Assembly (NCBI GenBank): GCA_016179955.1
Contig: JACPCD010000005.1
Location: 10,323-74,322, forward strand
DNA from: Candidatus Woesearchaeota archaeon
GTDB lineage: Archaea; Nanobdellota; Nanobdellia; Woesearchaeales; GW2011-AR9
DNA length: 64,000 nucleotides
Direction of reading: 5' to 3'
This document shows, piece by piece, positions 1,893-14,802 of the stretch. The position numbers and the translations under genes were made by a program. Each line of letters begins with the position of its first letter. Position 1 is the stretch's first letter. The notes below the pieces were generated by a model. It was not told the origin of the DNA. It worked only from the letters and a program-made list of their open reading frames with translations, and ran no database searches.

Positions 1893-3677
1893 ATGGAAAA
1901 AAAGAAAGAAGAGTTGTCCATTCAGGGACCGGTTGGCCGGCAGAGCGAATTGCATAAAGAGGGTCCTGACCGTGCTTCCACCTCTCCCGCTAACAACAGT
2001 GAGGAGGGAGCAATATCCCGTAACTACGCTCGTTGGTCGGACCACGCCGCGGCGAAGATCTCCTCGTTTCTTAAAGATAAATATAACTTGGCATTTTTAG
2101 TGGTGTTATTTTTAGCTTTTCTGATCCGCCTGAAGTACATCGGACAGGAAAGCATCTGGAATGACGCAGCCGTGCATTTATGGTATGCGATTAAAGTAAC
2201 TCACCAGCCGCTTTTTATTTTTACTCAAGAATATCTGTTAGGTGATTATGCTACGGTTCAAACCTTAACCGCTTTTTTGTATTTGTTCACTAAGAATGTG
2301 TTGCTGGCAGGGCAAATCGTCGCTATGTTTTATGCGATTATCGGAATCATATTCATGTATCTTTTAGGAACTGAAATACGCAGCCGATTTACGGGATTGA
2401 TGGCGGCAACCTTATTAGCGTTTAATCATCTTTTTTGGTTTTACAGTGCTCGTCCGTTGGGAGATTCGCCACTTCTAGTTACTACCATTGTCCTTCTGTA
2501 TTGTATGGTCAGGTTGGAAAAAGAGAAAACTCTCCGCTGGGGGATACTCAGTGGGGTTATGTTTTTAGCAGCCATGTTTACAAAGCAACAATCTGTTCTT
2601 TACATCTTCGCCTTAGTGATTTATGTGCTTTTGTTTAGACGAAAGGAAATGTTCAAAAATAAGGCCTTGCTCGCCTCTTGGCTCATTCCCGTGGTTTCCA
2701 TACTTATTGCCCATGTTGTTGGAAAAATTTTCTTTCATGCAAAAGTTTTAGATCGGATCTTCAAACTATTCTTTGATTTGCGGGGTCTGCCATTTGGATT
2801 CGAAGCAGCCGGCATGCTGCAATGGATATTTTCGTGGTACCTGATTCCTTTTGTTATTATCGGGGCTTTGCTGGTCATTTTCTACCGAGAGAAAAAGTAC
2901 TATTTTGGACTGACCCTTTTTGCATTTTATTATCTGTTCTTTGAGGTAAATGTTGATAATACCCAAGATCGCTATGTTCTCCCGTTGTTTTCCATCGCCA
3001 TACTCTTGGCAGTCTTCGCCTTGGAAGAAATAAGCACTTACATCTCCATGTTTATCCATAAGTTTGCCAAACCAATTATCGTCATTGTCGTAGTCATTTT
3101 CATTAGCTGGAATTATTATCAGGTAGGCGATGCTCTCAATTATAATAAATCTTTTAGTTATTTGGGCTATCAGGAAGCGGGGCAATGGATGAAAGAGAAT
3201 GTTCCTGCCAAAGATCCCATCTTTGTCGGTGAGTATCGCTCGATACGTGCTTTCTCCGAGAGAGAATTTGGTGGCCCTATGCTGGAAGATTACGGCGGTA
3301 ATATCATTAATCTGCGCTCACCATACCGCTACAGCACCGAAGGGGTCAAACCCAAAGAGGAAGAGCAGAGAAACTTTGAAGAAGATATTTTGGTCTTATC
3401 GCAAAGTCGTGATATCTATCTTGAAATTGACATCTGGGAATACGCCCAGCCGACCTGGTACTGGCCCTTATCGCAGGCAAGCCTGGATTATTTCGTAAGC
3501 CTCGGGTTTTATCCCGTCAAGATAATCGAACGGCCGGTGTTGACCAAGGATGGGCCAAAAACCATTCCAGTCATCTTTATTTTAAAGAAAGACCGTACCG
3601 GAACAACGGCCAATGGTTCTCTCCTACAGACAGCAGTTAATGATGAAACACAATGGCGGCAAAAGTTTCTCAATTAG
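1893..3677 (+). CDS. GT-C fold membrane glycosyltransferase (GT39/ArnT/PMT-like)
   Basis: 594 aa. Hydrophilic ~60-aa N-terminus, then more than 10 hydrophobic helices. Acidic first-loop motif (ESIWNDAAVH). Soluble C-terminal ~150 aa. Confidence 0.65.
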   Translation: MEKKKEELSIQGPVGRQSELHKEGPDRASTSPANNSEEGAISRNYARWSDHAAAKISSFLKDKYNLAFLVVLFLAFLIRLKYIGQESIWNDAAVHLWYAIKVTHQPLFIFTQEYLLGDYATVQTLTAFLYLFTKNVLLAGQIVAMFYAIIGIIFMYLLGTEIRSRFTGLMAATLLAFNHLFWFYSARPLGDSPLLVTTIVLLYCMVRLEKEKTLRWGILSGVMFLAAMFTKQQSVLYIFALVIYVLLFRRKEMFKNKALLASWLIPVVSILIAHVVGKIFFHAKVLDRIFKLFFDLRGLPFGFEAAGMLQWIFSWYLIPFVIIGALLVIFYREKKYYFGLTLFAFYYLFFEVNVDNTQDRYVLPLFSIAILLAVFALEEISTYISMFIHKFAKPIIVIVVVIFISWNYYQVGDALNYNKSFSYLGYQEAGQWMKENVPAKDPIFVGEYRSIRAFSEREFGGPMLEDYGGNIINLRSPYRYSTEGVKPKEEEQRNFEEDILVLSQSRDIYLEIDIWEYAQPTWYWPLSQASLDYFVSLGFYPVKIIERPVLTKDGPKTIPVIFILKKDRTGTTANGSLLQTAVNDETQWRQKFLN

Positions 3678-4573
3678 CCACGATCCAAGTCGATCTGGAC
3701 GGGTTATGGACCAATCTGCAGTATTATGGGCATGACGCGCCCGTAAGCCCCGATATCGTATTTACGTCGGGATTGCGCCGTTATCTGGATCTCTTTGAGG
3801 AATTAGGCATAAAAGCAACTTTTTTTGTGATCGGGAAAGATGTTGGCATTCCGGAAAAAAAAGTCTTGCTTCAGGAAGCTCATGAAAAAGGGCATGAATT
3901 GGCCAATCATACATTTACACACCCCTTTGGTTTCCGCAAATTATCAGCATCGCAACAACAGGCCGAGATTGAGCAAGGGGAAAGAGCTATAGGTTCCATT
4001 ACCGGCAAAAAGCCACGTGGATTCAAAGCGCCAGGGTATGATGTTGACACCAAAATATTATCCTTACTTGCAGAAAAAGGGTATCTTTATGATTCCTCTG
4101 TTATCCCCACCCCGGCATATCCTCTTTTAATGAAAATAAATAGTATTCTCACCCGCAGTGTCTCTCGAAACCATGGCCCGCGGTGGAGTTGGGGAATGGC
4201 TCCCAATGCACCCTATCATCCTTCGTCAAAAAAGGTCTGGAGGAAGGGAAATAATCCACTCTTGGAATTGCCGTGTACCACCTTTCCCGTACTACGAATC
4301 CCTATCCATGCCACCTTTGCCGTAAAATTAGGATACCCTTTTTTCCGAGGGGCATTAGAAGTCGTAAAGAAAAGGGCTATTCCTTTAAATTATGAATTTC
4401 ATGCTGCCGACCTGTCTGACACTATCATCGACTCACGTCTGGGGCACCTGCAAGGGATCCCAATAGAAAAAAGAATGGCTTTAGTACGAAAGATGTTAGC
4501 AGCTATCTCCACCAATTATGAGCTTCGGACTTCTATTGAGTTGGCTCAGGAGTTTATCACCCATGGCCATTGA
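3653..4573 (+). CDS. Polysaccharide deacetylase (CE4 / NodB-homology)
   Basis: KATFFVIGKDV and ELANHTFTHP motifs (NodB metal/catalytic motifs). Directly upstream of a FemAB-like gene, as in EPS loci. Confidence 0.85.
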   Translation: MAAKVSQLATIQVDLDGLWTNLQYYGHDAPVSPDIVFTSGLRRYLDLFEELGIKATFFVIGKDVGIPEKKVLLQEAHEKGHELANHTFTHPFGFRKLSASQQQAEIEQGERAIGSITGKKPRGFKAPGYDVDTKILSLLAEKGYLYDSSVIPTPAYPLLMKINSILTRSVSRNHGPRWSWGMAPNAPYHPSSKKVWRKGNNPLLELPCTTFPVLRIPIHATFAVKLGYPFFRGALEVVKKRAIPLNYEFHAADLSDTIIDSRLGHLQGIPIEKRMALVRKMLAAISTNYELRTSIELAQEFITHGH

Positions 4574-5615
4574 ACTATTAACTCCACACACTGAATCGGA
4601 ATATGCAAGGTACGTCGAGCATCATCCTCGTGGAACTATAGAATTTTTAGTAGGATGGCGAGACTTATTGCAAACAAATTTTAAGTTTAAACCAGTCTAC
4701 CTCATACGAAAAAATTCTAAAGAAGTTATTGATGGAGTTCTTCCTTTGTCTTTAGCAAAGAGTATTTTTGGTACGCGGCTTGTATCCCTGCCCTATGCAG
4801 TTTCAGCAGGTGTATTGGCTGATTCTGAAGAAGCACTCAAAGAATTAGTATCTTTTGCCGAAGAGTTGGCCCGAACTGAAAAAGTCGATTTTATAGAGAT
4901 TCGTGAATCTGAAAAAGCAACACTTTATCCGGCATCTTTTCGTTGCTCCCAAAGCGTCTTCTCTTTTTCTTTAGCCTTAAGTCCAGATGTTGATGCGGTC
5001 TGGAAAAAACTTCCTAAAGGGAGCGTCCGCTGGGGTATAAAGAAAGCGGAAAAAAGCGGATTAACCCAGAGGCATGGAAACTCCAAAGAATACCTCGATG
5101 ATTTTTATCAGCTCTTCCTGCAAACCAGGAAATATCGTGGCGTTCCAGCCTACCCCTATTCTTATTTAAAAGGGATCATGGACTTATTTAGTGATAAAGC
5201 CCGTATTTACATCGCTGATTATAACCAAAAACCGGTTGCCGGGATACTTTTATTATATTATAAACAGGAAGTGCGTTACGCTTTTGCTGGTGCGATACCC
5301 CATCCTAAAATATTGCAGTTGCAGCCGTACCATTTACTCTTATGGCCGGCAGTTAAAGATGCTTGTGAGCGCGGATATACTGTGTTTAATTTTGGGGGCG
5401 CAGCCCTTACCACCAATGACGGGGGATTATATGAATTTAAGAAGAAATGGGCTGATAAAATCACCCCTATAGAATCTTATGTTTATACTCCTAAAAAAAA
5501 ATACGTGCCCCCGTCAGAAAGCCCGTTATTTAAGATGGCTGGAAAGCTATGGCAACATCTTCCTATTCCCATAGTTAAAGCAGTTAGCCCTTATGTTATT
5601 CGTCAGTTCGTTTAA
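4563..5615 (+). CDS. FemAB-family (GNAT-fold) aminoacyl/peptidyl transferase-like protein, paralog 1
   Basis: FNFGGAALTTNDGGLYEFKKKWA and C-terminal ...SPYVIRQFV are shared with paralogs at 13753 and 59548. The track start at 4518 overlaps the deacetylase by 55 nt; ATG 4563 (MAIELL...) overlaps by only 11 nt. Confidence 0.75.
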   Translation: MAIELLTPHTESEYARYVEHHPRGTIEFLVGWRDLLQTNFKFKPVYLIRKNSKEVIDGVLPLSLAKSIFGTRLVSLPYAVSAGVLADSEEALKELVSFAEELARTEKVDFIEIRESEKATLYPASFRCSQSVFSFSLALSPDVDAVWKKLPKGSVRWGIKKAEKSGLTQRHGNSKEYLDDFYQLFLQTRKYRGVPAYPYSYLKGIMDLFSDKARIYIADYNQKPVAGILLLYYKQEVRYAFAGAIPHPKILQLQPYHLLLWPAVKDACERGYTVFNFGGAALTTNDGGLYEFKKKWADKITPIESYVYTPKKKYVPPSESPLFKMAGKLWQHLPIPIVKAVSPYVIRQFV

Positions 5616-5620
5616 ATAAA

Positions 5621-5704
5621 ATGGCAAACTACAAAATATCTTTCCTGCAAAAGGAAGAGTACCATCATTATGTTCATTTGCCAGAAGAAAACCGGTTGGA
5701 GTAA
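5621..5704 (+). pseudogene. 27-codon remnant of a FemAB-like gene 5' end (MANYKISFLQKEEYHHYVHLPEENRLE*)
   Basis: Hand alignment with the start of the 13753 gene (MENYKISFLQEQDYGKY...): 10/14 aa and 33/42 nt identical over the first 14 codons. Similarity then decays and a stop follows at 5702-5704. Confidence 0.55.
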
Positions 5705-5708
5705 TAGA

Positions 5709-6422
5709 ATGAATACTAAAATTACAGTCGATGAAAATGAATTGCGTACGAAATGCCGATGGCCGAGAAACCCAGGCATTCTAGGGGATAAAATGATGGA
5801 TGAACTAGGGGTATATCTAGCGAAGCTACTCTTACATACCGCTATTGCCCCTAACCACTTGACGATTATGGGCTTATTTTCGGGTCTTATTGGTGTGGGG
5901 TTGCTTACTTTTCCTAATTATCTAATCGTTGGAATAGGATACCTCTTGATATTCCTTTTCGGGGTTATAGATTACACTGACGGTGTCATCGCGAGATATA
6001 AAAATATAGCTTCTGAGAAAGGGAAGTATTATGATGATTTAGGGCACTTCATTCCTCCCCTCATTTTTCTGGCAGTTGGGATACACATTCTTAACACTAC
6101 CGGGAACGTAACTGCAGTTATTTTAGGCGGGCTCTCATCATTTATGTACGTGAGTATTGACTTCAATGCAAAATTAATGAATCTCATCACTGGTGAAAAA
6201 AAGCATCAGCTTTATTTAACAGGTGCATCTCCCATCAGGTCCGCGATATTAAAGATACAGAAAAACCTCACTTTTGGGGTCCATATAATCATACTCTTCG
6301 GTATAGCTACCCTTGCAGAATATTTTATTCCTGAGAGTAGTTTCTACATGTTGCTATTTTTTGCTCCGTTCCTTACTCTTACTTTTTTTGCTCAGACATT
6401 TTTCTATTCTAGAAAACTATAA
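5709..6422 (+). CDS. CDP-alcohol phosphatidyltransferase-family membrane transferase
   Basis: DYTDGVIARYKNIASEKGKYYDDLGH fits D-x2-DG-x2-AR-x8-G-x3-D, but the last Asp position is His. Multi-TM. The track start at 5670 overlaps the remnant; ATG 5709 sits just after the remnant stop. Confidence 0.75.
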   Translation: MNTKITVDENELRTKCRWPRNPGILGDKMMDELGVYLAKLLLHTAIAPNHLTIMGLFSGLIGVGLLTFPNYLIVGIGYLLIFLFGVIDYTDGVIARYKNIASEKGKYYDDLGHFIPPLIFLAVGIHILNTTGNVTAVILGGLSSFMYVSIDFNAKLMNLITGEKKHQLYLTGASPIRSAILKIQKNLTFGVHIIILFGIATLAEYFIPESSFYMLLFFAPFLTLTFFAQTFFYSRKL

Positions 6423-6469
6423 ATTTTTGAGCGATTATTCCAATTTTTCTTATTTCTGTTTATTAAAAT

Positions 6470-7627
6470 TTAACTAATGCGCCGCAGGATGGTGCGCAAA
6501 GATTTTTCTGTAAGCTCCCGTGGATTGTTCTTTACCCTTTCCTGATTAAATCCATTGGCAACAATAATGTCGTGATCTTCCGGGGTGGTTATGTTAAGCA
6601 TGGCCAGTTTTCTGGTAAGTTCGATCTGATCCATAAGCTGGTTTATCTTTTGTTGCATCTCCTCTGGTGTCTGGACCCGAAAGATCGAACACAAATCGTC
6701 CATAGTTTTTTTAACATAGGCCGGTCCTCTTGTATCCAGACAATCTTCAGCATTTATTCCTGTATTATAAAGAGAAATTTCTCCTAAAGTCAAGGCACAG
6801 GCATGACCATGAGCAATGCCAAAATAAGATGTTAGGGGATAAGAGATGGAGTGGCAGGCGGTAGTTTTGGAAACATTTATCGCCTTGCCCGCAAGATTAG
6901 CTGCTTTCATCATGGCCGCACGATGTTGCAGTGAAGGATTAGTGACTGCAGATTTTAAATTATCTAAAACAATAGTAATTGCCTGCCGAGCGTAATCTTT
7001 TGATTCTTCTGTTGACTGATTGGACCAGTAGGATTCGACCGCATGACACAAAGCATCTATCCCGGTAGAAGCAGTAATATTCTTAGGCAAATTTAAAGTA
7101 AGGGTTGGTTCCAGGAATACATATTCTGGCAGCATCCATTCCTGATGAGCCAGAGAATATTTTTTTTTATGGATATAAACCACCGCAAAATGGGTTGCTT
7201 CAGAACCAGTTCCAGCAGTGGTGGGGATAGCAATCAGTGGTTTTGGTTTTTGGCTTGGCTCAATCTCTTTTTTGATATACCTCTCTGGTTCTTCCGGTTC
7301 CGCCACCAGAAAATTAATTGATTTGGCCATGTCCATGACGCTTCCTCCACCAATTGCAATAGCCAGATCGCTTTCAGCCTGTCGGAATAAAGCTATTCCT
7401 TTCTTAATGTCTTCAAGTTGCGGGTTGAGTGAAAAATCAGAGAAAGTAGTTACTTTATAAGCAGAAAGAAGCGGCTCCATCATTTCTTGTGCCCTTGAAT
7501 GTTGGTAAGAAATTTTACCAGTTACTAGAAATATTGAGGAAGGTTTTTCCTGTTCTAATACTTTTTTGAGACCAGCCAGGCTTCCTGAACCAACATATTC
7601 TTGCTGCATTTTTTGCATTTCAAGCAT
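6470..7627 (-). CDS. Iron-containing (group III) alcohol dehydrogenase; by context, phosphonoacetaldehyde reductase (makes 2-hydroxyethylphosphonate)
   Basis: 385 aa Fe-ADH architecture (GGGSVMDMAK glycine motif, His-rich metal region HAVESY...HGHACA). Lies 4 nt downstream of ppd on the same strand. Confidence 0.7.
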   Translation of the reverse strand: MLEMQKMQQEYVGSGSLAGLKKVLEQEKPSSIFLVTGKISYQHSRAQEMMEPLLSAYKVTTFSDFSLNPQLEDIKKGIALFRQAESDLAIAIGGGSVMDMAKSINFLVAEPEEPERYIKKEIEPSQKPKPLIAIPTTAGTGSEATHFAVVYIHKKKYSLAHQEWMLPEYVFLEPTLTLNLPKNITASTGIDALCHAVESYWSNQSTEESKDYARQAITIVLDNLKSAVTNPSLQHRAAMMKAANLAGKAINVSKTTACHSISYPLTSYFGIAHGHACALTLGEISLYNTGINAEDCLDTRGPAYVKKTMDDLCSIFRVQTPEEMQQKINQLMDQIELTRKLAMLNITTPEDHDIIVANGFNQERVKNNPRELTEKSLRTILRRIS

Positions 7628-7631
7628 CTCT

Positions 7632-8765
7632 TCATCTTTGAATAAATTCCATGAATTTATTTTTATTTTCCATCGGAGATTGCGTGGGCCGTCCTAGATC
7701 CTTACGCGCGCCTTTATTGCAGCGTATCTCTAATAATGCCGGACCTTTCCCTTGCTTAATTGTTAGTAATTCCTCCCGTATCTCCGTCGCATTCTCAGCA
7801 CTACAAAATGTTTTATACCCATTAGCTTTCGCTATTCCGGGAATATCAATAGCATTAGCGGCGGTAGGCTGTCCGCCAACGGAGTCATGGGCAAAATTGT
7901 TGAAAATGATATGGTTAAAGTTTGCTGGTCGTAATTTTCCGATGGTTGAAAGAACTCCCATATGCATAATTAAAGCTCCGTCCCCATCAAAACAATATAC
8001 TCTTTGATTCGGCTTCTGGAGAGCGATGCCTAAAGCGATGGATGAAGAATGCCCCATCGATCCGACAGTTAAGAAATCTTGGTGGTGTCCATGTCCTGCT
8101 GCTTTCCGAAACTCAAATAATTCCCGTGAGGTTTTTCCCGTGGTAGAGACAATGATATCACCTTTATCAAGAAGCGAGGCTACCAATTTAATTGCTTCCT
8201 CCCGAATCAAGGGGAAATGAGTCTCCTGTTTCGTTTTCAATGAATAGGAATCAAATGTCCCCTCTCGAACTACGAAAGCATAAGGAGTTTTAGTATTGTC
8301 CAAATGTTCAGCCGCTTTTTGTACTTCTTTTTTCACTTCCTCTTCACTTTCAGGAAGGATAGCATACGGAATTTCTAACACCTCCAGCAACGGCAAAGTT
8401 ATTCTGCCCATCTTGCGATGCTGCGGCTCATCTTTTTTTCCTGCTTCGCCCCGCCATCCGATGAGCAGCAGCAGCGGTAAGGAATAAATTTCTTTATCGG
8501 TAAGCGAGGTTAGAGGATTAATACAATTGCCTAATCCCGAATTCTGTAAATAAACTACGCCCACTCTTCCTGTTGCTAAATGATAGCCTGCGGCTAAGGC
8601 AATGGCATTTCCTTCATTGGCAGCAATGATATTATTTTTTGAAGAAGTATTATCTGTAACGTACGCACAGAAATCTTTCAACAGGGAATCAGGGACGCCA
8701 GCGTAAAAAGAAAAGCCGTGTCCATGCAATAGATTAAAAAAGTATTGCGGTGAAATCATCTCCAT
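7632..8765 (-). CDS. ppd: Phosphonopyruvate decarboxylase (TPP-dependent)
   Basis: N-terminus ...FFNLLHGHGFSFYAGVPDSLLKDF and TPP motif GDGALIMHMG...x...NN. Sits in a locus with PEP mutase. TATA geometry favours Met3 (ATG 8759) as a leaderless start. Confidence 0.85.
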   Translation of the reverse strand: MEMISPQYFFNLLHGHGFSFYAGVPDSLLKDFCAYVTDNTSSKNNIIAANEGNAIALAAGYHLATGRVGVVYLQNSGLGNCINPLTSLTDKEIYSLPLLLLIGWRGEAGKKDEPQHRKMGRITLPLLEVLEIPYAILPESEEEVKKEVQKAAEHLDNTKTPYAFVVREGTFDSYSLKTKQETHFPLIREEAIKLVASLLDKGDIIVSTTGKTSRELFEFRKAAGHGHHQDFLTVGSMGHSSSIALGIALQKPNQRVYCFDGDGALIMHMGVLSTIGKLRPANFNHIIFNNFAHDSVGGQPTAANAIDIPGIAKANGYKTFCSAENATEIREELLTIKQGKGPALLEIRCNKGARKDLGRPTQSPMENKNKFMEFIQR

Positions 8766-8781
8766 TCAGAGAAATATGCCG

Positions 8782-8789
8782 TTTATAAA
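8782..8789 (-). promoter_or_regulatory. TATA-like box TTTATAAA for the ppd-adh operon
   Basis: Centre is 26.5 nt from ATG 8759 (Met3) and 20.5 nt from ATG 8765. Confidence 0.5.
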
Positions 8790-8868
8790 AGTGATGAAAC
8801 GTGTTTCCCCATTAAATCTGTTGTCTTTAGGACTTGACAAACCCCAAGTTCGCAAGAAAATCATAACC

Positions 8869-8876
8869 TTTAAATA
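8869..8876 (+). promoter_or_regulatory. TATA-like box TTTAAATA for the radical SAM gene
   Basis: Centre is 27.5 nt upstream of ATG 8900. Confidence 0.55.
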
Positions 8877-8899
8877 TTCTCAAACTTCTTCAACTTTTA

Positions 8900-10438
8900 A
8901 TGAGTAAAAGTTCGCTTCCGATAATTAATACTGGACCCGAAGAAGATTGTTTCAATTCGTCCCCACGACGACTCTCTAAAGTACCAATGACGCCTGCCCT
9001 AGAAACTTTGCTTAATCCCCATTTACATAACAAAGAAGCTATTTTTACAAGCCCCATAAGACCGCCCGCGGAGGGTGAGAAAATATACCATCTTTCAGAG
9101 GAACAGATTAAAGCACTAAGGGATTTGAGAGGAAACACTATTGATCTTCATCCCGGCATGGGCGGGATTGCCCCCCATAAACTTATTGACATGATTAAGC
9201 AAGGAAAACCGCTAACTTCTTTAGATTATATGATCACCAGAGGATGTAATTTTGAATGCACTTGGTGTTTCGCTGGGTCTGATCCTTATCAAAGAGATTA
9301 TCTTCCTTTTAACGTTCTTGAATCATTAACCACAGAAGCTGCGGATATAGGAGTAAGTTTATTTGTTCTCACTGGTGGGGAACCGTTGGTATATAAAGAC
9401 CCCGCTCTAGGAAAACAAAAGGAGCGAGGGGACCATTTTTTTAGAATTGTTCAAATGATCAGAGATACTTATAATAGAAAGGATAATCCGGCAAAGATCC
9501 TTACCTTTGATGATGTAGCCTTAATCACGCCGAAAATTGCCAAAAATTTCGCTGATTTTGAGGTTGGCTTATGTACAAAAGGCGATACTTTAAACCCGGA
9601 ATTGCAAGATTTTAAAGTCAATCAATCAGGAGCATTTAAAAAAATGCAACAGGGATACGAAAACCTGATGCATGTTGGATATGGTAAAAATCCAAAATTA
9701 CGCTTGGTTGTTAATTCAGTTCTGGACCACACCACTTTTGATGGAATAATCGATCTTCACCTGTGGGTCATGAAAAATGGATTTGATCACTCGATTGTTC
9801 CAGTACACTATTGCGGCAATGCTGAAAATGAGGATCAGGAGGCAGGAATACATTCTCCGCATGTAAAAGTCCTCTATGATTTAATCACCAGAATTGATGC
9901 TGCATATTTTGGTGTAAAATGGGAAGCTTGGTCTGCGTTTACGTACAATAAAACCTGTAACCGGAATAGATCGGGGTTGCACATCAGGGCCGATGGAGAC
10001 GTTACCGCGTGTTCAGAATCCCCAGGGAGATCTGAAACCAATAAATATACTTTTGGTAATGTTTTATCCGATAAAAATTTTTCACTTAGAACGCTAGCTA
10101 ATAGCCAACAATTAGCTGCTTACCGGGAAGAATTTGCTAAAGGACATGGCACCTATGTCTGCTCCCCAAAAGTATGTGATTTGTATGCTAATGATTTATG
10201 TCAGGGCGGTTGCGCAACTCGATCAGCGTATTCAAAAATTGATTATGAAACTGGTCTGATTGTAAAAAACGATAACCCCCATAGTTATAGTGAATTTAGG
10301 GAAGACCCTTTATGTCCTGCTTGGACCGTTCTTGCTGAACGCCAGGGCGTTCTTAAAAAAAGTTTACTGAGAGAAATTCATGATCGGCTACTTTCCAACA
10401 GTCAAAGTATAGAAGCGAGAGAATTCCCTTTTTCTTAA
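8900..10438 (+). CDS. Radical SAM enzyme with C-terminal Cys-rich SPASM/twitch-like domain; substrate unknown
   Basis: CNFECTWC (C116-x3-C120-x2-C123) plus the GGEPL glycine motif. C-terminal CSPKVCDLYANDLCQGGCATRS. About 100-aa N-terminal extension with no motif I recognise. Confidence 0.8.
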   Translation: MSKSSLPIINTGPEEDCFNSSPRRLSKVPMTPALETLLNPHLHNKEAIFTSPIRPPAEGEKIYHLSEEQIKALRDLRGNTIDLHPGMGGIAPHKLIDMIKQGKPLTSLDYMITRGCNFECTWCFAGSDPYQRDYLPFNVLESLTTEAADIGVSLFVLTGGEPLVYKDPALGKQKERGDHFFRIVQMIRDTYNRKDNPAKILTFDDVALITPKIAKNFADFEVGLCTKGDTLNPELQDFKVNQSGAFKKMQQGYENLMHVGYGKNPKLRLVVNSVLDHTTFDGIIDLHLWVMKNGFDHSIVPVHYCGNAENEDQEAGIHSPHVKVLYDLITRIDAAYFGVKWEAWSAFTYNKTCNRNRSGLHIRADGDVTACSESPGRSETNKYTFGNVLSDKNFSLRTLANSQQLAAYREEFAKGHGTYVCSPKVCDLYANDLCQGGCATRSAYSKIDYETGLIVKNDNPHSYSEFREDPLCPAWTVLAERQGVLKKSLLREIHDRLLSNSQSIEAREFPFS

Positions 10439-10515
10439 GGTTAGATCTCCATTTGTAATTCCATTGAAGCCGTAAAAATATTTTTGAAGATATATCTTTA
10501 TTAAGTTTATTATAC

Positions 10516-10555
10516 CAAAAGACATAATTATTTATACAATTTGTTATGTCTTTTG
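10516..10555. terminator. Hairpin 1 in a convergent intergenic region (12-bp perfect stem CAAAAGACATAA/TTATGTCTTTTG, 16-nt loop)
   Basis: Arms at 10516-10527 and 10544-10555, paired by hand. Confidence 0.35.
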
Positions 10556-10561
10556 TATATA

Positions 10562-10599
10562 CAAATGGCGTAAATTTGTATAACAATTTACGTCATTTG
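10562..10599. terminator. Hairpin 2 (15-bp stem with one G-U, 8-nt loop TGTATAAC)
   Basis: Arms at 10562-10576 (CAAATGGCGTAAATT) and 10585-10599 (AATTTACGTCATTTG). Confidence 0.35.
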
Positions 10600-10631
10600 G
10601 TATAGGTAGGGAATTACCACTTAGTAAAGGA

Positions 10632-11999
10632 CTAAACCTTATTTCTTCCTTCTTGGTTAAACCAGGGAATCATTTCACCAAAAGCACGGGCAGAATTCTG
10701 TTTCCCTATCAACGAAAGTTCTCGCTGAGGTTCACCCGCAACCCTTCCGCCAATTCTCAAAACTAATAATTTTCCATCCGGTCCGCGAAAATTATGTGGA
10801 ACAAACGGCTTTACATACATAGAGTCGTTTGGCATGATGGATTCGCAATACTCGTGGTCATCAGTGCGCCAGTTAATGTTCACTGGTGAATTTCCCACAT
10901 TATACACATATTGATGCAGGCCGACTTTAAGATCTAGGATGTCTCGGTTTTTATCGGACTGTTTAAGAACTTTCAACTCCAAGGCCCGGGAGTGGGATAG
11001 ATGACTTGTTCTTGCCAATTCCACCAATTTATACGCTGGATCAATACTGGGAAAATCCCATCTCCGGTTAGTTCTATAATAATTGACCAACACTTTCTTT
11101 TGTATATCGTCTGGAGGCAGTAATTCCCGCCGGTCAATATTTAATGCTTCTGCCAGCGCTTCGAGGTCATCAGGTTTTGGTAAAACCGTTCCCAATTCAT
11201 ATTTTTCTAAAAGAGATAAAGAAAGTCCAGTTCTCCGAGTTAATTCCGGATGATCAATACCGGCTGCTTCTCTATGAAACCGTAGCAGAGAAGCAGCTGC
11301 TTTTTCTCGAGTAGAAAAATCCAAGGCATAATCAGCGGCAAGTTCTGGACCTATTGCAGATAATTCTTGTTGTGTTTCTCCGGCAAGCTTATTTCCATAG
11401 GTTAAAGCAAGAATAAGTCCTTTCTCGCCAGCCCTATTCTTGCGGGTGGCAAATGTATGCGGAACAAACGGAGTAATATACATGGAGTCGCCGGTATTCA
11501 TGACCGCAACTTTTTTATCCCCCCTTTCTCCTTTGTAATAAAAATTAACCGGACCGATAAAGTATGTAAATTGATGCAGGAAGTGTCCATTGTTCCATTG
11601 CACTGCCTGATGGTTAGCACTATTGTTATCTACTATGCACAGTTCTTTGATCCATTCCGGCCGAAATTGGCCGACCGTGCTGGCAACTGTATCGCGATAT
11701 TCATAATACGGCTGGCCGGCACGTTTCATAACCCGGCTAGTTTTGGCGGATTCTTTCGCTCGCATGATTTTAACACCGATTGGACAATCATCGTTGACAC
11801 AATAGAAATCACGTTCGTTGACCGGCCATATCCCTGCTGCTCGCCTTATTAATTCCGCCGGAATCTCTTTCTCACCACTTAAATAATAATTAAGTTCGTC
11901 CACTGGGATCTTAAGGTCAGCTGCTGCATCTTCCGGTCGGCGTTTGAGATCATTCAGAATGCCTAAGAGATTCTGCGCGCTTCTTTTTTTATAGTTCAT
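10632..11999 (-). CDS. mpnS: HEPD/MPnS-family non-heme Fe(II) 2-hydroxyethylphosphonate-cleaving dioxygenase; residue pattern predicts methylphosphonate synthase
   Basis: 455 aa with two (HTH + cupin) repeats. The first cupin has H139, Q143, H181 with F153 and I175. All five sit at a constant -9 offset from the N. maritimus MPnS residues H148, Q152, H190, F162, I184 as I recall them. No Glu at the position of the HEPD Glu ligand (I175 instead). Codons verified on the DNA (CAC 11585-11583, CAA 11573-11571, TTT 11543-11541, ATT 11477-11475, CAT 11459-11457). Confidence 0.65.
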   Translation of the reverse strand: MNYKKRSAQNLLGILNDLKRRPEDAAADLKIPVDELNYYLSGEKEIPAELIRRAAGIWPVNERDFYCVNDDCPIGVKIMRAKESAKTSRVMKRAGQPYYEYRDTVASTVGQFRPEWIKELCIVDNNSANHQAVQWNNGHFLHQFTYFIGPVNFYYKGERGDKKVAVMNTGDSMYITPFVPHTFATRKNRAGEKGLILALTYGNKLAGETQQELSAIGPELAADYALDFSTREKAAASLLRFHREAAGIDHPELTRRTGLSLSLLEKYELGTVLPKPDDLEALAEALNIDRRELLPPDDIQKKVLVNYYRTNRRWDFPSIDPAYKLVELARTSHLSHSRALELKVLKQSDKNRDILDLKVGLHQYVYNVGNSPVNINWRTDDHEYCESIMPNDSMYVKPFVPHNFRGPDGKLLVLRIGGRVAGEPQRELSLIGKQNSARAFGEMIPWFNQEGRNKV

Positions 12000-12104
12000 T
12001 TTATTCCAGTTGGGGCTACTATGTCAAAAATATGCCACCTGCCTATTTGACCGGTGGACCATGTCCCTCGGTGTGGTTTTCGGCAGCATATTGGGATTGG
12101 AGTC

Positions 12105-13409
12105 TCATTCACCATTTGGTATTAGAGTAATAATTTCTTTAATGGACATGCATTGTTCATTACTTGCTTCATAACTTCGTTTATTCTTTAAAATAGATTC
12201 TGCTGTTTTTACCATAGCAGGATAAGCACTACGCAATAAATGATTAGCATATACAACCATATTAACTCCTGCCGTAATAAGTTCTTCTTCAGTGATTATA
12301 GAATAGGTGCTAGGGACCACGACTAAACTTACTTTAGTCTCAAATTTTTTGTATTCCTTGCAAAACTGTAAAATTTCTTCCGGGTTCTTTTCTTTACTAT
12401 GGATCATTATTCCATCAGCTCCAGCGGCAATGTATGCTTTTGCTCTTTCCAGGGCGTCAGCTAAACCTTTCTTTAGAATTAAACTTTCTATTCTCGCAAT
12501 AATCATAAAATCATCGGAAGCCTGAGACTTTTTCCCTTCTGAAATCTTGCGGCAAAAATTTTCTATTGTATCCTGATTTTGCTCTACTTCAGTTTCAAAA
12601 AGAGAATTTCTTTTCGAACCAATTTTATCTTCAATTACCACTGCTGAGACGCCCAATCTTTCCAAGGTTTTTACCGTAAAGCGGAAATGTTCAATTAATC
12701 CTCCGCTGTCAGCATCTACCAGCATTGGTTTAGTAGTTACCTCAAAAATTTCACTTACAGTGTTGCCTATAGAGGTAATATCCACATATTCAATATCTGG
12801 TTTACCTTTAGAAGTAGCATGGGTCAAACTGCTTAACCAAGTGGCATCAAATGTTTTGGGGACATTATCTTCATCTTTCACCATGGTTTTTTCAACAATA
12901 ATCCCGGTTAAACCATTATGGGCTTCTAAGATGCGTATCATGGATTTAGCGTCCAGCAAACGCCGCAGCATATTGCGGCGAATATCGGGGGTAATTCCTC
13001 TTTGTTTAACTTTAGTTATTAGCTGGGTTGAAGAAATCCCCTGAGTATAAAGCGGTTCAACAACTTGGCCGCCCCATTCTTTCATCACCTCTATTACCCT
13101 TTGGCGCTTTTTTGCCTGTATCCCTATTTTCCAGTCATCGCCATGAACAAAATAATCCGGCTTTAATTCTCGTATGGCGGGGATGTAATCGTCATCTTCC
13201 TGCGCATAGACCTTGCTTACCGTGCGTATATTTTCAATAACTTTTTTACGCTGCTCAAAAGTCAATATGGGGAGCCGCTTATAATTAGCAATGGCCCGAT
13301 CGGTCAGAAGCCCCACTGTCACTTCTCCAAGTTTGCTGGCTTCATTAAGAATATTCATATGGCCGTCGTGGAGTAAATCGGCAGCCATGGGAACATATAC
13401 TTTTTTCAT
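12105..13409 (-). CDS. pepM: Fusion of a cytidylyltransferase-like domain (HxGH) and phosphoenolpyruvate phosphomutase
   Basis: N-terminal MAADLLHDGHMNIL (HxGH nucleotidyltransferase motif, ~135 aa). The C-terminal ICL/PEPM fold carries the PepM-diagnostic EDKIGSKRNS (EDK-x5-NS). SD-like GTGAGGT lies 8 nt upstream of the ATG. Confidence 0.85.
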   Translation of the reverse strand: MKKVYVPMAADLLHDGHMNILNEASKLGEVTVGLLTDRAIANYKRLPILTFEQRKKVIENIRTVSKVYAQEDDDYIPAIRELKPDYFVHGDDWKIGIQAKKRQRVIEVMKEWGGQVVEPLYTQGISSTQLITKVKQRGITPDIRRNMLRRLLDAKSMIRILEAHNGLTGIIVEKTMVKDEDNVPKTFDATWLSSLTHATSKGKPDIEYVDITSIGNTVSEIFEVTTKPMLVDADSGGLIEHFRFTVKTLERLGVSAVVIEDKIGSKRNSLFETEVEQNQDTIENFCRKISEGKKSQASDDFMIIARIESLILKKGLADALERAKAYIAAGADGIMIHSKEKNPEEILQFCKEYKKFETKVSLVVVPSTYSIITEEELITAGVNMVVYANHLLRSAYPAMVKTAESILKNKRSYEASNEQCMSIKEIITLIPNGE

Positions 13410-13752
13410 CTTGGTACCTCACTTTTACCTAGTTTTCATCTTGCTTCTGGTTAAAAAATAGTATATAAACTTTCGGGAACAGCAATACCTTTTCTTCTGC
13501 ATTCAACTAAGATAAATAATCAAAGTGTTTATTAAGCGTTTTTATATTTTCATCATATACCACTACCAGCTACCGTGAGATTGTCTGCAGAAAACAATCT
13601 TTATTTCAAAATATTAATAAATACCCCTTTATGTTTGATAACTTGGCTACTCCAGAATGGAAAAAGAAGTAATTATATGTTAAAATGAAAGAAACTATTA
13701 ACATAATTATATAACCAATCTTTGTTACCAGTTCATCCCGTATATTATCAAA

Positions 13753-14802
13753 ATGGAAAATTATAAAATCTCTTTTCTGCAAGAGCAAGATTATGGTAAA
13801 TATGCTTCTTTCCTCAAAGAATGTCCCGAAGCATTATACGAACACGACCTCGCAATTAAAGACTTAGTTGCTAAACACTTTAAATTTAAACCAAGCTATT
13901 TAATTGCGAAAGAAAACGAAAAGATAGCTGGGGTTCTGCCCATCTTTGAAGCTAAAAGTATCCTGGAAGGAACCCGGTTTGTTTCCATTCCTTTTTTCCC
14001 TTTCGGCGGGGTTATTGGCAAGGATATTGACTGCAAAAGGCAGTTGCTGGATAAAGCGAAAGAGCTGGCAGCCAATGCTAAATTCCTCCAGATACGGCAG
14101 CGTGAAGAGCTTCTCCCGGAGTTAGTTCAAGAGATGGTGGTGCAGAAGCCCATCACCAATTTTTTTATTGATCTTAAAAAAGGAGAACCAGAAATGTTTG
14201 CTTCCCTGGATAAAAGCATCCGCTATGACATACGAAAAGCCCAGAAACACCATCTTCCTGTCGTTATTGGCACTACCCCTTTACTTCTGAATGATTTTTA
14301 TACCGTATACTTAAATACGCGGAAGAAGCGGGGAGTTCCTGCCTGGCCGTACGGCTTATTTCAACAGGCCTTGCAGAACTGCAACACAAAAGTCGCAGTA
14401 ACCTATCATCAACAAAAACCAATTGCGGCCAGTTTCCTGTTTATGGATAAAGAAACTATCGAATACGCCTTTGCCGGGACCGATTATCGTTACTCCTGGA
14501 TGTGTCCCTACTATCTTTTAATCTGGGAAATCATTCGTTTTGGTATTCGCAACAATTACAAGACTTTAGAGCTTGGTGGTTCTACCAGAGAGATGAATGA
14601 TGGAAATATGTACCTGTTCAAAGACCAGTGGGCCACCCGAAAAGCGGAGATTCCGTATTACTTCTATGCTGCTGATCCTCAAAATATTCCTTCCCTGCAC
14701 CGTTCCTTTGCTCTCTACCGTTGGTATGGCCGTTTTTGGCGTTTGCTTCCCACGGCAGTGATTAAAAGAATAAGCCCATTCATTATACGCCAGTTTGTGT
14801 AA
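13753..14802 (+). CDS. FemAB-family transferase-like protein, paralog 2
   Basis: Same architecture and C-terminus (...SPFIIRQFV) as the 4563 gene. LELGGSTREMNDGNMYLFKDQWA core. Confidence 0.75.
   Translation: MENYKISFLQEQDYGKYASFLKECPEALYEHDLAIKDLVAKHFKFKPSYLIAKENEKIAGVLPIFEAKSILEGTRFVSIPFFPFGGVIGKDIDCKRQLLDKAKELAANAKFLQIRQREELLPELVQEMVVQKPITNFFIDLKKGEPEMFASLDKSIRYDIRKAQKHHLPVVIGTTPLLLNDFYTVYLNTRKKRGVPAWPYGLFQQALQNCNTKVAVTYHQQKPIAASFLFMDKETIEYAFAGTDYRYSWMCPYYLLIWEIIRFGIRNNYKTLELGGSTREMNDGNMYLFKDQWATRKAEIPYYFYAADPQNIPSLHRSFALYRWYGRFWRLLPTAVIKRISPFIIRQFV

Follow-up and report, generated by a model that had tools for sequence, protein, structure and literature searches.

How did a methylphosphonate cassette come to stand inside an archaeal glycan operon, and what is the very short open reading frame (ORF) at its left edge? 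Both questions are raised by a 64-kb stretch of a Candidatus Woesearchaeota genome (contig JACPCD010000005.1, positions 10,323 to 74,322), called here the window, to whose positions all coordinates refer; the genome assembly measures 0.95 Mb in 42 contigs and encodes ribosomal protein S8e, and its database homologues carry Woesearchaeota or Nanoarchaeota labels, which marks it as a DPANN archaeon. In the window, two genes of FemAB type, FemAB1 and FemAB2, are separated by six phosphonate cassette genes, and a 27-codon ORF directly after FemAB1 begins like FemAB2. A sequence-only reading of the window had proposed that the cassette was inserted or recombined at the start of a FemAB gene, leaving a 5' stub. 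Synteny, shuffling tests and the presence of the cassette elsewhere support that proposal, and we consider it very likely that the stub is the insertion scar of the cassette between two ancestrally adjacent FemAB genes. The following features carry the argument.

4518 to 5615, plus strand: FemAB1, FemAB/Acetyltransf_6 family (Pfam); database homologues start at 4563 (350 aa)
5618 to 5689, plus strand: left copy of a 72-nt diverged direct repeat, made up of 3 nt of leader and the first 23 FemAB2-type codons
5621 to 5704, plus strand: the stub ORF, read as a remnant of a FemAB2 5' end, its final 5 codons being cassette leader sequence
13750 to 13821, plus strand: right copy of the repeat, the functional FemAB2 5' end, placed by alignment to the left copy
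13753 to 14802, plus strand: FemAB2, intact (Pfam), whose orthologues directly follow FemAB1 in relatives

The FemAB1 stop codon TAA at 5613-5615 is followed by the spacer ATAAA and then by the stub ATG at 5621, so that the ORF lies 5 nt past FemAB1, exactly where it had first been placed. It reads MANYKISFLQKEEYHHYVHLPEENRLE* over 27 codons and ends in a TAA stop at 5702-5704 with a TAG immediately 3' of it; the FemAB2 start at 13753 reads MENYKISFLQEQDYGKYASFLKE... Over codons 1-14 the two are identical at 10 of 14 amino acids and 33 of 42 nt, the same figures in our recount as in the original hand alignment. The similarity had been described as collapsing after codon 14, and it does drop there, but weak homology extends as far as codon 23, with 12/23 aa and 49/69 nt identical over that span; only 2 of the next 12 nt agree. 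With the 3 nt 5' of the ATG included, the ungapped identity is 52/72 nt (5618-5689 versus 13750-13821), and blastn of the two copies gives 72.2% over 72 nt. The best local alignment of these segments scores 50, a score that none of 2000 shuffles reached (mean 18.4, standard deviation 2.6, maximum 31), and 0 of 200,000 fixed-register permutations matched as well. When the stub is searched against both strands of the whole window, no segment other than itself scores as high as the FemAB2 start (the runner-up scores 35), and a genome-wide tblastn search with the 5' ends of 841 ORFs recovered the stub at E 9e-4.

When 15 FemAB2-type genes were compared, the 5' end closest to the stub was that of the FemAB2 of its own genome, at the 49/69 nt given above. 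The 14 orthologues reached at most 42/69 (L075 42, G126 41, L076 40), and among the 15 5' ends K5 and Q10 are common to the stub and its own FemAB2 only. Farther along, the orthologue-conserved F20 and L/V21 are replaced in the stub by L and P, each one base change away, which is a pattern of decay. Six of the nine mismatches in codons 1-14 fall on third positions (binomial p 0.04), an excess that fits either two copies that were both once coding or selection on the FemAB2 copy alone.

The arrangement in relatives bears directly on what stood here before. If the cassette had been inserted, relatives lacking pepM and mpnS should have FemAB1 and FemAB2 side by side, and this is so in at least 15 loci from at least 10 genera, where the two genes are directly adjacent, 6-195 nt apart, with no phosphonate genes between them. 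For instance, in three other genera (G012, G022 and G007) all twelve flanking genes are collinear at 40-68% aa identity and the FemAB pair is adjacent. Further adjacent pairs came from a family-wide search (G126, G075, G076, G080, G065 and G063) and from protein-database look-ups (L075 and an ENA contig, L076, L078/L079 and L080/L081). Two of these are the nearest relatives outside the strain group: L075 (polysaccharide deacetylase 75%, FemAB1 66%), with FemAB2 6 nt past the FemAB1 stop, a spacing close to the 5 nt before the stub, and L076 (FemAB1 70-72%), with FemAB2 52 nt past it. A stub without a cassette, which would speak against an insertion, occurs in none of the syntenic loci examined, nor does a cassette at that site; the cassette occupies the FemAB site only in this genome and its strain-level relatives. 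Since adjacency is found in all the syntenic loci compared and the cassette at this site only in this strain group, adjacency is the ancestral state and the insertion derived. The stub is thus homologous to FemAB2, truncated, and in FemAB2's place directly after FemAB1.

Downstream of FemAB2, L078/L079 have another PMT gene and genes for a HAD hydrolase, a GNAT protein, NeuB and an APH-type kinase in place of the DegT-EamA-GT2-epimerase genes found here; the locus is therefore modular to the right of FemAB2 as well.

A different history might also account for a stub that resembles its own FemAB2. A local tandem duplication may have come first, with the upstream FemAB2 copy mostly replaced or deleted on arrival of the cassette, and the stub would then be the remnant of a third, lineage-specific FemAB gene. 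That the stub and FemAB2 are mutually closest and share the derived K5 and Q10 would agree with this, as would the third-position mismatches if both copies were coding. The same third-position excess, however, is equally expected if only FemAB2 stayed under selection, three tandem FemAB genes occur in 0 of at least 15 related loci, and two events are needed where one suffices. We consider a prior duplication of this kind unlikely and retain the insertion scar as the explanation.

Strain-level variation at the left junction provided a view of the stub's present condition. The locus L073, a metagenome contig of 2,366 bp in ENA, comes from a different sample; its flanks match the window at 93-98% nucleotide identity, with the order FemAB1 3' end (98.2% nt), CDP-alcohol transferase (93%) and alcohol dehydrogenase (ADH, 96%). 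Its comparison with the window defines the following segments.

5620 to 5676, plus strand: segment absent from L073 (contig comparison), 57 nt covering the ATG and about 19 stub codons
5690 to 5708, plus strand: left end of the inserted DNA and leader of the CDP-alcohol transferase gene, kept in L073; there is no FemAB2 similarity past 5689
5709 to 6422, plus strand: CDP-alcohol phosphatidyltransferase family gene (CDP-OH_P_transf, Pfam)

The L073 junction reads TAAATAA followed directly by TTTGCCAGAAGAAAATCGG..., or at greater length TAAATAA followed by TTTGCCAGAAGAAAATCGGTTGGAGTTAATAGAATG, with the stub tail and the GGAG kept. This GGAG is a Shine-Dalgarno-like motif at 5697-5700, 8 nt before the ATG at 5709. 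The transferase starts at that ATG and not at the in-frame upstream ATG 5670, because L073 has lost ATG 5670 and its transferase, 93% identical, begins at the equivalent of 5709. Over the missing 57 nt the stub and FemAB2 are 72% identical, and the strains differ by 2-7%. As the divergence between stub and FemAB2 is far greater than that between strains, the stub must have been present before the strains diverged, and the segment was deleted in L073. In a further assembly, L086 (of a fourth sequencing run), a missense substitution at 5630 (T>C) produces Y4H in the stub, one of two differences in 4,350 nt. The stub is therefore a dispensable, decaying, non-functional pseudogene fragment and not a functional ORF, because L073 keeps the FemAB1-transferase order without 5620-5676 and L086 carries Y4H.

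The L073 contig also has a non-coding insertion of about 314 nt (L073 positions 1177-1496) between CDP-alcohol transferase and ADH, corresponding to window positions ~6463-6468. It has a 6-nt flanking duplication, TTAAAA, and imperfect terminal inverted repeats (CCCAACTTTGACA... and ...TGTCAAACTTTGG), and looks like a miniature inverted-repeat transposable element. A second full copy is absent from this genome, where the sole match is to the first 46 query nt and overlaps the shared flank.

The tight spacing around the stub had nonetheless raised the possibility that it is a working small ORF, either a leader peptide or a translational-coupling bridge from FemAB1 to CDP-alcohol transferase. 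The FemAB1 stop lies 5 nt before its ATG, its frame is open for 27 codons, and its closing TAA TAG ends 1 nt before ATG 5709, so that the transferase begins 4 nt past the stub stop. Against such a role, L073, with flanks as similar as 93-98%, has done without the ATG and 19 codons yet keeps both the transferase and the GGAG; Y4H in L086 is a missense change at a conserved Tyr; the orthologue-conserved F20 and L21 are mutated in the stub; and thirteen further open codons are unremarkable at this composition (~0.4-0.5 by our estimate). A functional small ORF is very improbable.

The DNA between the two repeat copies continues from the transferase gene as follows.

6470 to 7627, minus strand: Fe-dependent alcohol dehydrogenase (Fe-ADH) of phosphonoacetaldehyde reductase type (Pfam)
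7632 to 8765, minus strand: thiamine pyrophosphate enzyme of phosphonopyruvate decarboxylase (Ppd) type (Pfam)
8900 to 10438, plus strand: radical SAM/SPASM enzyme (rSAM; Pfam)
10632 to 11999, minus strand: methylphosphonate synthase (MPnS)-type bicupin (HTH-cupin; Pfam and PDB match)
12105 to 13409, minus strand: cytidylyltransferase-PEP mutase fusion (CTP_transf_like+PEP_mutase, pepM; Pfam)
13439 to 13494, minus strand: pepM promoter block, reading TGTTCCCGAA, 2 nt, TTTATATAC on the minus strand and conserved in the cassettes of genus g61
13495 to 13749, no strand: orphan spacer, AT-rich at 27.5% GC, with which the insert ends on the right

The identities of cassette and flank genes were taken from Pfam, which agrees with the original naming of all six cassette genes between the repeat copies. 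The bicupin matches the Nitrosopumilus maritimus MPnS structure 6b9s at E 2e-158 and the HEPD structure 6b9r at 6e-83. Within the MPnS gene, a 40-nt direct repeat at 80% identity (10788-10827 and 11451-11490, 663 nt apart) probably reflects the duplicated cupin domains, with the motifs MYITPFVPHTF and MYVKPFVPHNF. The spacer 13495-13749 showed no homologue or gene remnant by blastn and six-frame tblastn against all fetched loci. The insert lies in a glycan locus, flanked on the left by a flippase, GT28-C/Alg14, PMT_2, a polysaccharide deacetylase (PSdeac) and FemAB1, and on the right by FemAB2, DegT, two EamA genes, GT2 and an epimerase.

The CDP-alcohol transferase is a near-orphan: a search of 5.8 billion proteins gave no more than two homologues that exceed 50% identity, one being the strain variant (93%) and the other a protein at 53% in an unrelated archaeal context (L074). 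A scan of metagenome contigs with this gene gave no match. The region upstream of the 53% homologue has no similarity to 5677-5708 and is therefore of no help in defining the left end of the cassette.

The rest of the cassette is found elsewhere. Five genomes of genus g61 encode PepM at 85-86% aa identity, MPnS at 68-71%, Ppd at 74-85% and ADH at 69-71%, and rSAM is 83% identical to that of one of them (G095), where gene order and orientation are the same as here, and 68% identical to that of G009. The g61 cassettes occupy a non-FemAB context with GT2 flanks and an extra gene, and their CDP-alcohol transferase is only ~30% identical to that of the window. The window cassette is itself composite, because its own transferase has just the two homologues described above. 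The 56-nt pepM promoter block (13439-13494) is 82-92% identical in the five g61 cassettes, with the conserved form TATTG(C/T)TGTTCC(C/T)(G/A)AAAGTTTATATAC, that is, TGTTCC(C/T)(G/A)AA, 2 nt, TTTATATAC; a one-mismatch version of the TGTTCCRGAA-TATA motif lies within the block at 13472-13481. By its sequence this is a promoter block of B recognition element/TATA type, and it moves together with the cassette.

A tree of PepM sequences places the window next to the g61 clade as its sister (support 100/99), with G009 and, beyond it, G012 as the next branches. PepM identities are 85-86% to g61, 77% to G009 and 68% to G012, and those of the family B DNA polymerase (PolB) are ~60%, 55% and 63% in the same order, so the similarity ranks of the two proteins disagree. 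All five core proteins of the g61 cassettes (68-86%) are closer to those of the window than PolB is. Of the 114 genomes of the family, 36 have PepM-type matches, and the contexts of these vary. The six cassette genes have a GC content at third codon positions (GC3) of 0.32-0.39 (z-scores -1.0 to -1.8), and most flank genes 0.43-0.59; the insert has 39.9% GC versus 42.9% and 44.7% in the flanks. Codon-usage likelihood is ordinary for the cassette genes except CDP-alcohol transferase, the most atypical gene of the region (z -3.0). Taken together, the g61 block in another context, the conserved promoter block, the disagreeing ranks of PepM and PolB and the base composition lend moderate support to an acquisition of the cassette by transfer. 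The sequence-only reading had called it a mobile or exchangeable module. Exchangeable it is, given the core block in g61 in a different context, but "mobile" holds only in the sense of exchange by recombination, with no mobility genes.

Isoleucyl-tRNA synthetase (IleRS) was tried as a yardstick of relatedness and dropped for PolB since it behaved erratically, ranging from 50 to 70% in g61 and giving 89% for G020, where it is fragmentary. The G020 genome (genus g21) has three different IleRS fragments at 89%, 75% and 58% and a PolB only 59% identical, and is either a mixed bin or the recipient of a transferred IleRS.

With the cassette traced to other contexts, the opposite polarity can be weighed, namely that the cassette was ancestral at the FemAB site and that relatives deleted it between the repeat copies. 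Direct repeats can mediate deletion, and phosphonate genes do occur in the same large glycan region of G012 (26 kb away) and G063 (13-18 kb away). This polarity would nevertheless need many independent, precise and scarless losses across at least 10 genera and would leave the origin of the truncated duplicate unexplained; the stub is nearest its own FemAB2 and not the orthologues, and the G012 PepM, whose gene lies those 26 kb from that genome's own FemAB pair, is of a different lineage (68%). We regard it as highly improbable, even more so than a functional small ORF. A chance resemblance or a chimeric contig, which a short region, two paralogues and an AT-rich genome might suggest, has a negligible probability in view of the shuffle and permutation tests, the tblastn match at E 9e-4, the left and right junctions, which came out the same when four runs were assembled independently (Logan; SRR12113431, -424, -430 and -385; 99.95-100% identity), the left junction in the ENA contig from another sample, and the fact that a chimeric join would need identical repeats and not ones 71% alike.

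Under the insertion-scar reading, the sequence of events may be sketched as follows. The ancestral glycan operon would have had the order PMT2, polysaccharide deacetylase, FemAB1, ~5-6 nt, FemAB2, DegT, EamA, EamA, GT2, epimerase. An 8,060-nt segment (5690-13749), carrying CDP-alcohol transferase, ADH, Ppd, rSAM, MPnS, the cytidylyltransferase-PepM fusion, the pepM promoter block and the AT-rich spacer, would have been joined to the resident FemAB2 after about codon 23, with a complete FemAB2 5' end adjoining its right side. This would have taken place after the split from the L075 and L076 lineages and before the split from strain L073. The outcome would be a 72-nt diverged repeat bracketing the insert, its left copy in the original place, truncated and decaying, and its right copy heading a working gene. 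A truncated 5' copy, an insert and a complete copy together imply that at least one illegitimate joint, at codon ~23, was needed. The likely route would be recombination without a dedicated mobility enzyme and with one such imprecise joint. The complete FemAB2 start could have been restored by a one-sided homologous crossover in or downstream of FemAB2 with a donor carrying the cassette upstream of its FemAB2 allele, by Campbell-type integration, in which a circle with a FemAB2 5' fragment enters through a single crossover, or by prior local duplication.

The hallmarks of dedicated mobility were also looked for. By Pfam, there is no transposase in the six cassette genes, and no short identical target duplication was found; the repeat is 72 nt long and 71% identical, versus the 2-15 bp identical duplications of transposon or insertion sequence (IS) insertions. 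None of the 140 background inverted pairs forms terminal inverted repeats at the insert ends. Nor does the segment resemble an integrase island, with Pfam assigning only biosynthetic genes between repeats that are diverged and coding, in an analysis in which tRNA genes were not scanned. A candidate inverted third copy (13438-13468 and 13761-13791, 71% complementary) was rejected, being within the background of the 140 pairs and having the pepM promoter as its left arm.

Gene trees point to the same boundary. A clade of the window and L075 is supported in the PSdeac (98/99) and FemAB1 (97/93) trees (window 3653-5615) and rejected for FemAB2 (delta log-likelihood 36.7, approximately unbiased test p 0.0085). 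Recombination has therefore broken the locus between FemAB1 and FemAB2 in one or more lineages of the clade. The best match of the window FemAB2 is the 111-aa FemAB2 fragment of L076, at 68%. FemAB2 may itself be mosaic: over the initial ~115 residues it comes nearest to G126, G007, G075 and L075 (63-65% identity), and residues 176-245 are 76-77% identical to G012, L078 and L080 versus 59% to L075; separate trees of the two halves gave no resolution.

Several points weigh against an insertion scar left by a transferred cassette. The searches turned up neither a donor in which pepM, spacer and FemAB2 follow one another nor a genome of the same genus that lacks the cassette, so that we infer the pre-insertion allele. 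The repeat copies are only 71-79% identical, which points either to an old event or to copies that differed as alleles from the start. The FemAB tree discordance cannot be assigned to the window lineage. PepM evolves slowly, so 85% identity against 60% for PolB suggests transfer and is not proof of it. Finally, the compositional comparison of cassette and flanks proposed at the outset did find a uniformly low GC3 in the cassette, but the shift is modest, and FemAB1, outside the insert, is itself low (GC3 0.35, z-score -1.4).

A more specific account would see in the 72-nt repeat the footprint of homology-anchored, enzyme-independent capture, by a DPANN archaeon, of a surface cassette. Different alleles of FemAB2 and the glycan genes downstream would have come in with the cassette, through a homologous joint on the right and an illegitimate one within the resident FemAB2 on the left, and the stub would be the last piece of the displaced resident allele. 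We put this forward tentatively, as possible but well short of probable. If it were true, the FemAB1-FemAB2 boundary would be a recurrent exchange point for Woesearchaeota glycan modules, and the promoter block brought by the cassette would have rewired a split operon.

The present layout would have consequences for transcription. The CDP-alcohol transferase begins 93 nt past FemAB1 here and 37 nt past it in L073, on the same strand, and probably now forms the 3' end of the FemAB1 transcript, with its own GGAG. FemAB2 and the five genes downstream of it are split from the upstream promoter by 7 kb with four opposite-strand genes, and being cut off in this way they would have to use a promoter in the spacer 13495-13749. 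The spacer has a TATA-like TTATATAA at 13708-13715, and FemAB2 and its downstream genes probably have their new promoter there.

Other 5' stubs were sought throughout the genome, and no general pattern emerged: the other top intergenic tblastn matches included 100%-identical contig-end duplicates and one multi-copy element. A 7-mer blastn search missed even the known stub, which tblastn recovers. Apart from this, a ~90-nt sequence at the apparent 5' end of an ORF on another contig (C19:267-1829) recurs on at least five contigs at 76-92% identity (C11:9631-9720, C33:7981-8067, C6, C5 and C4), and one of the copies is found ~600 nt ahead of window position 1. An RNA gene or a small repeated element is a more probable identity for it than a coding sequence.

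Known recombination systems offer close parallels. In homology-facilitated illegitimate recombination of naturally transformable bacteria, a one-sided homologous anchor is combined with an illegitimate joint. The window shares with it a single homologous side and a single imprecise joint, and in neither case is there a mobility enzyme or a short, identical duplication of the target. It differs in having a 72-nt duplication of the anchor start where recipient DNA is usually deleted; the host, moreover, is an archaeon, and we only infer such a process here. Campbell-type insertion-duplication, in which a circle with the 5' part of a gene integrates through one crossover, leaves the anatomy seen here, with a truncated 5' copy in its native context, the insert, and a complete copy severed from the native promoter. 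Unlike the near-identical repeats of that process, those of the window are 71% identical, which means either an old event or the wrong route, and the circular intermediate is hypothetical here. The capsule and O-antigen loci of bacteria are mosaics in which truncated gene fragments mark past exchanges, often with IS elements; the stub is likewise a gene remnant at a module junction of a surface-glycan locus, with no IS element. It is a new example of the familiar, ordinary gene remnant at a recombination joint and not a new kind of element.

The cassette itself has counterparts in marine bacteria, whose phosphonate cassettes are horizontally transferred and lie in genomic islands (Acker et al. 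2022, PMC8931226). In Prochlorococcus, the pepM tree agrees poorly with the species tree and the genes are located in islands (PMC8931226). The window cassette resembles these marine cassettes in being pepM-centred and patchy, in a pepM tree that may be discordant with markers and in lying in a variable cell-surface region (PMC8931226). Unlike them, it has a Woesearchaeota-type DPANN host and stands inside an operon between two FemAB-type genes; a gene remnant shows to the base where it was inserted, and no transposase is nearby. In the library of papers searched, none combines methylphosphonate synthase with Woesearchaeota.

For annotation, the ORF at 5621-5704 should not be called a gene, and the CDP-alcohol transferase should be annotated from 5709. 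For the biology of the lineage, the scar places the entry of the methylphosphonate cassette into the glycan operon within a few bases, gives the order of events and marks the methylphosphonate trait as probably acquired, not inherited, in this Woesearchaeota lineage. The locus also illustrates how a DPANN archaeon can gain a cassette with no mobility genes involved, in a group for which there is little documentation of how genes are acquired, and a trait acquired in this way fits surface phosphonate decoration as a frequently exchanged accessory trait (PMC8931226).

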